A stretch of DNA of 31,736 nt from a virus (taxonomy: Duplodnaviria; Caudoviricetes). The notes beneath the pieces were generated by a model. It was given only the letters and a program-made list of their open reading frames with translations. It was not told where the DNA came from and did no database searches. The stretch is from positions 1-31,736 of the IMG/VR virus record IMGVR_UViG_3300020045_004363. The stretch is one strand, 5' to 3'. Of this stretch, positions 9,181 to 30,738 are shown piece after piece (the stretch's first letter is position 1; every line of letters begins with the position of its first letter). A program made the position numbers and the translations under genes.

Positions 9181-9203
9181 TTTATTGTCCTTTACAAAAC
9201 AAT

Positions 9204-9495
9204 TTAAAGGAGTCGTACTATCCTAGGGTTTGGTTATTCGGAAATAACATATTAAAAATACTATTGTTATCCCAGTCGGTCATGCGAGCGTTATATGTTA
9301 GCTGTTCTAGTAGTCTGAATTAATTCCTAACATTTGCCTTGGATTTGAACCAAGGACAAACTGATTAAAAGTCAGTTGCTCTACCAATTGAGCTATCAAT
9401 TAGTGGTTTACCACCATCGCAACGATATCTCGAAATATCTATCTTTTAAGGCAAGATGCAAGCCTTTCCCTAACGCAATAATACGACTCGTTTAA
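9204..9495 (-). ncRNA. Putative ~290-nt structured RNA closed by a long terminal helix, containing a tRNA-like domain
   Basis: The 5' arm UUAAACGAGUCGUAUUAUUGCGUUAGGG pairs with the 3' arm CCCUAGGAUAGUACGACUCCUUUAA (three G-U pairs on the - strand, one C-C, one 3-nt bulge). Several internal hairpins; no ORF in the track. Confidence 0.7.
9330..9402 (-). tRNA. tRNA-Lys(UUU)-like sequence with a defective acceptor stem (pseudo-tRNA)
   Basis: TA-GCTC-AATTGGTA-GAGC-A-ACTGA-CTTTTAA-TCAGT-TTGTC-CTTGG-TTCAAAT-CCAAG. Anticodon at 9367-9369. Acceptor TAATTGA/GCAAATG has A:G and A:A mismatches; no CCA. Confidence 0.8.
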
Positions 9496-9499
9496 CTTA

Positions 9500-9805
9500 T
9501 TAAGATTTAGATGCTGTATAGTCACCCATATTTGCATCTGTTAATTCTACTTCACAAGTCCAGTTAGCTTGCTGAATTGCAGCATCAACTAAACGTAATT
9601 GCCTAGCATAAAAATCAAATTCAGCAGTTACTTGGCTTGCAGTTAATTTAGGTACTTGAGCAACAATATCATCAAGGCTATCGCTTACCGCTTTACGTTG
9701 CGCTCGTAATTCAAATAAATCACGATCTTTTATATGTTGAAGAACATCAACTTTACCTTGCAATTCTTTGCGTCTTAATAATGCTTCAGCTAATTTTACT
9801 TTCAT
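9500..9805 (-). CDS. DIP1984-like (septicolysin-annotated) family protein
   Basis: N-terminal KLAEALLRRKELQ and C-terminal LVDAAIQQANWTCEV signature; shorter than typical members. Confidence 0.75.
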   Translation of the reverse strand: MKVKLAEALLRRKELQGKVDVLQHIKDRDLFELRAQRKAVSDSLDDIVAQVPKLTASQVTAEFDFYARQLRLVDAAIQQANWTCEVELTDANMGDYTASKS

Positions 9806-29045: not shown

Positions 29046-29759
29046 ATGCGTTATATGGGTAAGGTTATACTTGGGATGATTCCGTCTATTTATGATACAG
29101 CAAGAGTTGTGAGAATAATCGGTGAAGATGGTACAGAGGATCAAGTAGGTCTAAATACACCAACCAAATATAAAGGTATCGAGCGCATATTTGACCCGTC
29201 TGTAGGTAAGTATGACGTAGTGGTTAATGTCGGACCATCTTACACAACACAACGTCAAGAGTCAGTTGAGTCAATGATGAGCTTAATGAATAGCGCGCCT
29301 GAAGTTATGTCTGTTGCGGCTGATTTAATGGTTAGGAATATGGACTGGCCGGGTGCTAGACAAATTGCAGACAGGCTAAAACGTGCAGTACCACCACAAT
29401 TATTAGGTGACGATGAAGAAGAAGATATACCGCCTCAAGCTATGGCTAAAATGCAAGAAATGGAGCAACACTTACAAGCACTTAACGCCCATGCCGAGCA
29501 AATAGAGCAACAAGCACAGCAATTAGCCCAAGAAAACGAACAGTTGAAAATGCAATCGCAAGACAAGCATGAAGAGATGATGCTTAAAAACAAAGAGTTA
29601 GAGGCTGATATTGCGTTAAAAATGCGCGAATTGCAGATAAAAGAGGCTGAGCTAGAGATTAAAAACTCTGAGTTGGAGATTAAAGAGGCTGAAACTCTTA
29701 TCAAGGCTCATACAGCATCACAGCCTAAAAACAATGTGTTGCAAAATACGAAACAATGA
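29040..29759 (+). pseudogene. C-terminal part of a P22-like portal protein (N-terminal part missing at the inversion junction)
   Basis: RSMRYMGKVILGMIPSIYDTARVVRIIGEDG, GKYDVVVNVGPSYTTQRQE and NMDWPGA motifs plus a coiled-coil tail; no RBS; in-frame TAA just upstream. Confidence 0.88.
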
Positions 29760-29791
29760 TCTAAAATGTTAGTTAGTGAGTAATCACTAAC
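29739..29791 (+). promoter_or_regulatory. Sigma70 promoter with a palindromic operator upstream of the scaffold gene
   Basis: TTGCAA-17 bp-TAAAAT (29739-29767); GTTAGTGA-GTAA-TCACTAAC at 29772-29791. Confidence 0.65.
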
Positions 29792-29832
29792 CTTATCGGC
29801 TAGGTAAACCGAGCAAATTCTTGGAGCAATCC

Positions 29833-30738
29833 ATGTCAGATGAAATAGATGTAGTGGTAACTCAACCAATTACACGGTTGCAACAGATTGAACAATCTCT
29901 AGTCACTGAATTAGAGAGAGAACAAACCGAAGCAGAACCTGTAGAAACTGAGGAAACCGAAGCCGCGCCTGAAACTGTTGACGAAGGCGAAACGAATACC
30001 GAAGATTCGGCTCCTGAGGAAGAAGATGTTGAACAGGAAGAACGGCCTAAAAAGTCAAAAGGCGGTGGATTCCAAAAGCGTATTGACAAGCTAACCAAAA
30101 AGGCTAGTGAGTTAGAAAGGCAGTTAGAAGCTGAACGTGCTGAAAAAGCGCAGTTATTAGCAAACAAACCGCCAGAAGCGCAAAAGGCACCCACTGATGA
30201 CGGGGCACCAAACCCTGAAGAGTTTGATACTTACGCTGAATACAATCGCGCTTTAGTCAGATTTGAGGCTAGGCAGATTAGGGAAGAGGAAAAGCGGCAA
30301 GAAGCCCAACAGCGTATAAATGCGGAATTAGCAGATGCCGGTAAGAAGTTTGAAGAAAAACTTAAGGCAGTAGCTAAAACGCATGATGATTTTGATGAGG
30401 TATTTGACCCTGACCTAACGGTTAATGGGGCTATGCAAGCAGTAATGCTAGATTCCGATGTAGGTGCTGAGATAGCTTATTACCTATGCAAGAATCCTGA
30501 AGAAGCTGCTGAAATTGCCGCTATGAACCCGATACAGTCAGCAAGAAAAATGGCTCTCATTGAAGCTAAATTATCAAAGTCTGAAGAAACGCCTGAACAA
30601 CGGAAAAGAATTAGTAAAGCGCCAACTCCTGTAAACACAACAGGTGGTACATCAAATGCTAGTGGTGGTAAAGACCCTAACAAAATGTCCCCTGAAGAAT
30701 TTGGAGTTTGGTTTAAAAAAACTTATGGTAGACGTTAA
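29833..30738 (+). CDS. Capsid scaffolding protein
   Basis: Acidic N-terminus; QKRIDKLT, PNPEEFD..EY, GAEIAYYL.KNPEEA and SKAPTP motifs; lies between portal and coat; GGAG RBS before ATG 29833. Confidence 0.9.
   Translation: MSDEIDVVVTQPITRLQQIEQSLVTELEREQTEAEPVETEETEAAPETVDEGETNTEDSAPEEEDVEQEERPKKSKGGGFQKRIDKLTKKASELERQLEAERAEKAQLLANKPPEAQKAPTDDGAPNPEEFDTYAEYNRALVRFEARQIREEEKRQEAQQRINAELADAGKKFEEKLKAVAKTHDDFDEVFDPDLTVNGAMQAVMLDSDVGAEIAYYLCKNPEEAAEIAAMNPIQSARKMALIEAKLSKSEETPEQRKRISKAPTPVNTTGGTSNASGGKDPNKMSPEEFGVWFKKTYGRR

Follow-up and report, generated by a model that had tools for sequence, protein, structure and literature searches.

A tRNA-Lys(UUU)-like element carried as cargo by a gene-linked, pseudoknotted phage RNA

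The locus and its features

The DNA analysed here, called the window throughout, is a stretch of 31,736 nucleotides, positions 1 to 31,736 of a linear virus record (IMG/VR IMGVR_UViG_3300020045_004363) that is 62% complete. It encodes a portal, head, tail fibre, lysozyme, RecT, helicase and primase. An IS3-type transposase pair lies at 573-1732. The C-terminal part of a portal and a scaffolding gene, at 29046-30738, are encoded by the plus strand, whereas the other virion genes point the other way. Since the match to the portal profile is confined to its positions 430-593, a rearrangement or an assembly join is possible.

On the minus strand, the 319-nt gap that follows a small gene is occupied by a structured RNA (Table 1), and none of 100 shuffled sequences was equally stable. 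Between a pseudoknotted core and a periodic tail this RNA carries a cargo that resembles tRNA-Lys(UUU). A first-pass annotation of the window had described the tRNA-like piece and proposed that it was an unchargeable mimic within a larger RNA, acting as a decoy, a cleavage sensor or a processing signal. The mimic is indeed cargo of an RNA of about 280 nt, and not a stand-alone gene; that annotation mentioned neither the partner gene nor the pseudoknot, nor the periodicity of the tail.

Table 1. Features of the RNA-protein module in the window
Feature	Position	Strand	Basis
Partner gene, 101 aa; short phage subfamily, DUF6847/DIP1984-like; helical hairpin	9500..9805	-	PF20935 match
Whole structured RNA, about 280 nt	9210..9489	-	Fold z -4.2; ends placed by the closing stem (inferred)
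Closing stem, 5' strand, with conserved GCG motif	9468..9489	-	Duplex energies; GCG in 102/117
Double-pseudoknot core: stem a; loop segments b and c, pairing downstream; hairpin d	9419..9465	-	Covariation
Small pre-cargo hairpin, using U1 and A2 of the tRNA-like piece	9401..9416	-	Ensemble
Cargo, tRNA-Lys(UUU)-like cloverleaf with weak acceptor and no CCA	9330..9402	-	Rfam match, arm parsing, ensemble
D arm of cargo, complete	9393-9378	-	
Anticodon arm of cargo, complete	9376-9360	-	
T arm of cargo, complete	9354-9338	-	
Periodic tail, about 12 units of 7.6-7.7 nt, predicted single-stranded	9232..9326	-	106 tails
Closing stem, 3' strand	9210..9228	-	Folding, duplex energies
A/U-rich hairpin between the RNA and the next gene	9189..9210	-	Folding; not called as a terminator

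The tRNA-Lys-like cargo

Read on the minus strand from 9402 to 9330, the cargo matches the Rfam tRNA model with 53.1 bits (E = 6.8e-9). A low or pseudogene-like tRNA score had been predicted for it, and ARAGORN made zero tRNA calls across the window. The D (4/4), anticodon (5/5) and T (5/5) stems consist entirely of Watson-Crick pairs and have standard loops, with the anticodon UUU at 9369-9367. The acceptor stem is paired at only 5 of 7 positions, with U1-G72 at its end and the mismatches A3:A70 and A7:G66. The discriminator is U73, a non-purine; it is followed by UAG, so CCA is absent, and the 3' side continues into the tail. The Levitt position holds a non-standard pair, A15:C48. The first-pass description of perfect inner arms, a broken acceptor, U73 and no CCA was accurate.

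In the predicted secondary structure ensemble of the window's RNA, each of the seven acceptor pairs has a probability of 0.0. The small upstream hairpin captures U1 and A2 (pair probabilities 0.82 and 0.59), in line with the overlap that had been noticed before, and C48-G66 lengthens the T stem (0.97). The D stem (0.28) and the anticodon stem (0.54-0.59) are partly populated, and the D stem rises to 0.84 when the pseudoknot and the tail are kept open. Similar small hairpins, read by eye, precede the cargo at the same place in many relatives. The anticodon loop retains the U36AAUC|A41 site that is sensitive to AriB (site as given in passages of PMC12409363).

Where does this piece come from? 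Its positions 18-43 are identical to true tRNA-Lys genes and match 53 stretches in viral contigs, many of them at contig ends, while the acceptor strands differ throughout. All 51 parsed tRNA-Lys genes that share this core have G/C-rich acceptor stems paired at 7/7 positions, 50 of them have CCA, and none sits inside a scaffold RNA. The acceptor strands in the window resemble those of other cargos rather than those of tRNA-Lys. Since every parsed core-sharing tRNA-Lys gene has such an intact acceptor, the one in the window does not look like a lightly damaged Lys acceptor; to judge from its sequence, it looks like linker sequence common to other cargos. Two relatives with the same 5' strand (L027 and L060) pair A7 with U66. 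The contig of the window is represented by one sequence, so its G66 may be an error or a change private to it. When the helicase and primase of this phage were used as queries no close relatives were found, and hence no ortholog of the exact Lys insert. The Lys-like feature is real, exceeds what chance would give, and belongs to a larger phage RNA-protein module not described before; the piece is very probably a tRNA mimic that is not chargeable.

The scaffold RNA

The two strands of the closing stem place the cargo and the tail on one loop. This stem is kept across relatives despite changing sequence, and each 5' strand pairs better with its own 3' strand (median duplex energy -32.4 kcal/mol) than with swapped partners (-18.1). 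When 37 diverse cores are aligned with MAFFT, substitutions on both sides are seen at 15 of 16 pairs, and 92.6% of cells are paired, compared with 36-44% in slid controls; these counts lean favourable, since the structure was read from the same sequences and the cores were picked with a profile seeded on well-pairing examples. In 58 of 117 RNAs (7.7 in shuffles), the window's not among them, another pseudoknot stands ahead of the tail. The nested pseudoknot order is similar to that of HDV-like or theta ribozymes, but there is no Rfam match to these and the core has neither the P3 helix nor the catalytic C linker of such ribozymes.

The tail is built of two types of unit, CCGAHU and AAC, and ends in CCGAHURACC. 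In 106 tails the CGA motifs stand at fixed offsets (-75, -45, -37, -14 and +1) over a span of 76 nt, and 83 of these tails are less structured than shuffles. This regularity makes the tail a likely, if putative, protein-binding track. The span from core to tail is 194-366 nt across relatives, and the whole RNA measures about 230-400 nt. A promoter scan returned 4 sites against 4.2 expected.

The scaffold matches no Rfam family in the window or in the 20 further loci searched. We found no paper on it by title or start of abstract, a search that left subscription journals and bioRxiv supplements outside and in which an unnamed motif prediction could be missed; for DUF6847 no paper was found, and for DIP1984 nothing related.

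The partner gene and its linkage to the RNA

The partner protein matches PF20935 with 32 bits (E = 1.4e-7), above the Pfam cut-off of 27, and NF038048 with 34 bits, below the NCBIfam cut-off of 70. It has 1932 homologs, and its Atlas clusters are mostly viral. DUF6847 is the only family that Pfam offers, and neither PHROGs nor PADLOC has one for it. A structure model (pLDDT 70.5) gave 3kdq as the top Foldseek row (E = 0.83, probability 0.85, 27% identity), and a VIA fold search returned only generic helical hairpins with Z up to 8.7; these fold searches thus yielded neither a significant match nor an enzyme fold, and a sequence search of solved structures found nothing under E 0.4. Set against the DIP1984/DUF6847 family (PF20935, NF038048, PDB 3kdq), the partner scores above one curated cut-off and below the other, and it is shorter, about 100 aa compared with about 150 aa.

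We fetched 176 loci with homologs of the partner gene, duplicates across collections included, which makes 177 with the window. A tail profile built from 58 of the fetched loci matches downstream of the gene in 165 of the 177. Seven of the loci without a match are too short and five were missed, of which four have a core match or an upstream copy of the RNA; L133 has neither. A pattern scan that was independent of the protein found 29 matches. Eleven of these also fit the core profile, ten with the gene in the locus and one at a contig start. The remaining 18 lack the gene as well as any match to the core or the tail. Taken together, the scaffold and the partner gene appear, from their sequences, to be an uncatalogued phage RNA-protein module.

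The RNA need not be a simple 3' UTR, as it lies 200-1000 nt downstream of the gene in several loci (L017, at about 1 kb, L020/L022, L040, L055 and L026), some with an intervening ORF. In L161 a copy of the RNA (2714-2975) lies upstream of the gene, and the near-identical L162 has a downstream core match.

Most genes around the module serve replication and recombination; none of them is a constant companion and no effector is conserved there. Among 73 neighbour proteins scanned with PHROGs there was no Ro60-like name. One copy is in a prophage (L067). The gene is also carried by 13 cultured Vibrio phage records, 12 of which are identical over the module. These carriers are Zobellviridae records, which we take to be lytic. 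In the Vibrio phages 1.264.O and PS32B.1 the scaffold is nearly the same and the largest differences are in two cargo hairpins: by eye, each phage combines a UAA-type with a UUGGA-type hairpin, and the order is reversed between the two.

Cellular DUF6847 genes also precede a conserved non-coding stretch, but this RNA is unlike the phage core and tail. In 17 full-length cellular loci the stretch after the gene has no tRNA call and the core and tail profiles find no match. By eye, a 3' motif that includes GAGGGYGGG recurs in most of these loci, and three (L224, L225 and L231) have T-loop-like hairpins.

Cargo types across relatives

The 166 RNAs found hold 131 distinct cargos between core and tail, of about 47 to 216 nt. 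For the 126 with a usable protein, our parser recognized 38 cloverleafs, 23 permuted tRNAs, 20 bare anticodon-like hairpins, 9 hairpins with a T arm and 12 T arms only, and it found none of these in 24.

The cloverleafs were compared with free phage tRNAs parsed in the same way; the parser requires the D, anticodon and T arms in both sets. Of the 37 control tRNAs, 9 are free tRNAs from family loci. The other 28 are all that the parser recovered of 61 annotated in control regions, which had been chosen because BLAST found them similar to the Lys-like piece. An acceptor stem paired at 7/7 positions occurs in 3 of 33 non-redundant cargo cloverleafs compared with 33 of 37 controls (P ~5e-12), CCA in 2/33 compared with 32/37 (P ~2e-12), and U33 is kept in 24/33 compared with 35/37. 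For the anticodon stem the order is reversed, 33/33 being complete in the cargos and 26/37 in the controls. On these counts the cargo cloverleafs seem to keep the shape of a tRNA but not its decoding function. This also bears out the earlier suspicion that the weak acceptor is not random decay; intact acceptors in relatives, which would have told against it, are rare. Three cargos (L003, L077 and L083) have ACCA and 6/7 acceptor pairs.

A blocked acceptor end is thus, as far as sequence can tell, a trait of the family, and Lys identity is incidental. The anticodon UUU is found in just 3 of 33 cargo cloverleafs, and the tRNA body of the window resembles those of L056, with a Leu-like loop, and L060, with a Gln-like loop. 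The specific link to tRNA-Lys(UUU), PrrC and PARIS that had been drawn for this element finds no support at the level of the family. Nor is U36A37A38 enriched (19/33 cargo cloverleafs compared with 19/37 control tRNAs, P = 0.64). Anticodons such as UUA and AAU are unusual in bacteria. The cargo of L157 has UUA, which would read a stop codon, and those of L138, L164 and L171 have AAU; such odd anticodons fit a non-decoding role.

In the permuted cargos the T arm comes first, followed by a capped acceptor-like stem and the D arm, and in some by an anticodon arm. The capped stem has at least 4 uninterrupted pairs in 21 of 23, and many permuted cargos are without any anticodon loop. Five loci (L020, L036, L058, L062 and L155) hold complete four-arm mimics opened at the variable loop, which consist of T arm, capped acceptor, D arm and an Asn-like anticodon arm. 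Two permuted mimics appear to stand in tandem in L036, L058, L062, L155 and L039.

Across 121 cargo clusters, a 7-nt hairpin loop ending in UAA occurs in 58 (1.25 in shuffles) and a Gln(UUG)-like loop, UUGG[AGU], in 26 (1.6 in shuffles), and in 21 no tRNA part was detected. UCA follows the UAA loop in 6 of 55 cases, which is no enrichment of the AriB site.

Turnover of the cargo

Comparison across homologous loci, proposed in the first-pass annotation as a way of telling a constant tRNA core from a variable insert, shows that the tRNA part is a variable insert. For example, L082 and L084 have identical proteins and 28 of 28 identical flanking bases, and have GCU and UUU anticodons respectively. 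Identical proteins are likewise found with different anticodons in L002 and L003, and with different cargo types in L004 and L005. Cargo type has changed at least 52 times on a quick, poorly resolved protein tree. A single clade of cloverleaf carriers is rejected on a quick protein tree of 59 rows (AU p = 9e-9), restricted to cloverleaf and permuted cargos and excluding identical proteins and the long-branch L059; recombination between gene and RNA would equally produce this rejection. At loop positions 34-37, differences are seen in 9-12 of 35 same-body pairs, compared with a rate of 13% in the flanks; the pairs are not independent and were picked for similar flanks. The tRNA shape seems, then, to have been rewired repeatedly in one slot: in normal order, opened at the anticodon arm or the variable loop, or reduced to a hairpin only.

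Likeness to known systems

In layout the closest system is YrlA with Ro60, where an ncRNA likewise adjoins its presumed protein partner and carries a tRNA-like domain whose acceptor is usually sealed. The permuted cargos have the T-acceptor-D order of YrlA (passages of PMC4201824) and match its model weakly: RF02553 scored below its cut-off (30-44 bits compared with 69) at 9 of 13 loci scanned, two of the 13 being Vibrio loci without a permuted cargo. The partner here, however, is a 101-aa helical hairpin, not a TROVE ring, and the RNA has a pseudoknot core and a periodic tail. Its mimic can be missing, is wired in several ways and often has a variable anticodon loop. The window's copy has normal tRNA order, no RF02553 match and DUF6847 rather than TROVE next to it, and is not a Y RNA; the comparison with YrlA made in the first-pass annotation holds for the permuted relatives only. 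There is no TROVE/Ro60 match on the 62%-complete contig. The Ro-binding motif GNCGAAN(0-1)G is absent from the window's RNA and found somewhere in 19 of 117 relatives, a count made without a chance control.

Other candidates fit less well. A functional tRNA-Lys(UUU) would have these arms, but not a 5/7 acceptor with ensemble probability 0.0, U73 and no CCA. ARAGORN and Rfam call no tmRNA. GOLLD and ROOL are large structured phage RNAs too, and tRNAs sometimes lie in a GOLLD linker, but they form RNA-only cages and many GOLLD exceed 800 nt (passages of 10.1101/2024.12.08.627333); the present RNAs are of about 230-400 nt and gene-linked, and no Rfam match to either was found in the window or 20 loci.

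In type III toxin-antitoxin systems, pseudoknotted RNAs with tandem repeats are encoded ahead of an RNase toxin gene and restrain the protein. Here the RNA lies downstream, the window has one core pseudoknot and the partner is without a PADLOC match. Evenly spaced single-stranded motifs do suggest one site per subunit, as in TRAP-type rings or these antitoxins, but this is an analogy only, and no sequence or fold link to the module was found.

Phage-encoded tRNAs are also known in counter-defence. AriB requires U36AAU, and the tRNAs that it cleaves are Lys(UUU), Thr(UGU) and Asn(GUU) (passages of PMC12409363); P2-OLD has a preference for Thr(UGU) (passages of PMC12445682). The counter-defence tRNAs described in passages of PMC11464382 and PMC12445682 replace the cleaved tRNA by cleavage-resistant functional copies; non-productive binding is merely suggested, in the discussion of PMC12409363. 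The anticodon classes of the cargos overlap these targets (Lys UUU, Thr UGU and Asn GUU). The replacement tRNAs are functional and have escape changes, though, whereas the piece in the window keeps the sensitive site, has no usable acceptor and is embedded.

A possible function

What might a module do that combines gene-RNA linkage, a covarying pseudoknot, a fixed periodic tail and variously wired cargo with changing anticodons? The reading that we favour, at a probability of about 40%, is that a protein-bound scaffold displays a tRNA bait for host tRNA nucleases or toxins. The RNA would be transcribed together with the partner gene, its 12 or so tail units would wrap an oligomer of the partner protein, and the cargo would point outward from the particle. 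The acceptor end would be an attachment point or sealed, so that the mimic would be neither charged nor matured. The enzymes bound could be anticodon nucleases or tRNA-modifying toxins, and loop turnover might follow the defences of different hosts. Unchargeable mimics would then tie up the host's tRNA-attacking defence enzymes during infection.

In favour of a decoy, the mimics keep the shape of a tRNA but not its decoding, anticodons change even between identical proteins, the cargo loops overlap known targets, being of the kinds read by the tRNA-targeting defences AriB and P2-OLD, and the window keeps the sensitive site. That said, a cleavable decoy should, by simple reasoning, only weakly inhibit a multiple-turnover enzyme unless it is very abundant. 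The known rescue works through resistant functional tRNAs, U36A37A38 is not enriched in the cloverleafs, AriB-type UCA is rare, cargo can be absent and an anticodon loop is missing from many of the permuted forms. What the particle did ancestrally may require no tRNA mimic, given that the cellular DUF6847 RNAs differ and have no tRNA call. A more elaborate version of the bait, in which a DUF6847 oligomer grips the 12-unit track and shows exchangeable mimics, at times with two loops together, whose loops are re-tuned to each host's nucleases or toxins, is somewhat less probable than the bait reading itself.

Alternatively, and with rather less probability, the tRNA shape (elbow and/or anticodon loop) could let the particle dock with tRNA-binding machinery of the host (the ribosome, PNPase, a synthetase or the t6A enzymes, for example) and steer host RNA metabolism rather than block immunity, much as a Y RNA acts as a tether. 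U36A37A38 is a t6A signal, which would suit such docking, as would the sub-threshold YrlA matches with their shared arm order and the T-loop-like hairpins of three cellular RNAs. A phage Ro60-Yrl particle binds and dampens host PNPase (PMC12135203). Yet a fixed host partner should fix the mimic, and both topology and anticodon vary even between identical proteins; Ro60, moreover, is absent from the partial contig.

A third reading leaves the work to scaffold and protein, with tRNA pieces captured by recombination as stable, tolerated filler in a permissive slot. The cargos without a tRNA part and the wide range of cargo lengths would be expected of such a slot, and Chen et al. raised nuclease protection as a role of the YrlA tRNA fold (passages of PMC4201824). 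We think it improbable: the permuted forms persist although they require a newly capped acceptor, bare 7-nt UAA loops are found far more often than chance would give, and loop positions 34-37 change in 9-12 of the 35 same-body pairs against the 13% flank rate.

Slightly less probable still is a tripwire, in which cleavage of the bait would unlock the closed RNA and thereby release the protein or switch it on, sensing a tRNA nuclease in the manner of a type III toxin-antitoxin system. The closing stem, with cargo and tail on one loop, the cleavage-sensitive site and the prophage copy would suit it. The partner has no PADLOC match and no enzyme fold, however, there is no conserved effector nearby, and the cultured carriers are presumably lytic.

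It is very improbable that the piece is a precursor of a working tRNA-Lys or a recently decayed tRNA gene. The core identical to real tRNA-Lys, the cargos with ACCA and 6/7 pairs and the possibly private G66 could be read in that way, but against this stand the intact, G/C-rich acceptors of all 51 core-sharing genes, none of them in a scaffold, and the cargo-like acceptor strands with their pairing probability of 0.0 in the window. Attachment-site cores usually keep the 3' acceptor strand and CCA. A remnant of integration into a host tRNA-Lys gene is barely credible, even if many of the 53 matches lie at contig ends as prophage junctions would, for the 3' acceptor strand and CCA are exactly the parts that differ, the partial contig has no tyrosine integrase, the slot is inside a conserved RNA, and permuted and hairpin-only cargos in the same slot largely refute it.

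Bacterial immunity often ends in tRNA cleavage, and the phage counters in the papers cited are replacement tRNAs and tRNA repair. If the bait reading is correct, a protein that holds non-coding tRNA mimics on display would counter immunity in a different way. In its more elaborate version, the module would be an RNA sponge against tRNA-targeting immunity, and its loops would record which tRNAs natural bacterial defences attack (Asn GUU, Ser GCU, Ile GAU, Lys, Thr and Gln UUG). Even without a decoy role, there remain an uncatalogued phage RNA-protein module, a testable role for DUF6847 and a case of repeated tRNA rewiring. As cultured phages carry the module, these ideas are directly testable.

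Free intact tRNA genes lie near the module in L002 (3655), L006 (3652), L009 (2900), L164 and L169. They are Asn GUU, Ser GCU, Thr UGU, Met, Gln and Pro, with UAA loops in 6 of 9, and bait and replacement tRNAs may travel together. Among 14 control genomes, Deinococcus radiodurans, a possible laboratory host for the cellular form, is the only one with a DUF6847 gene, and Ro60 is present there as well.
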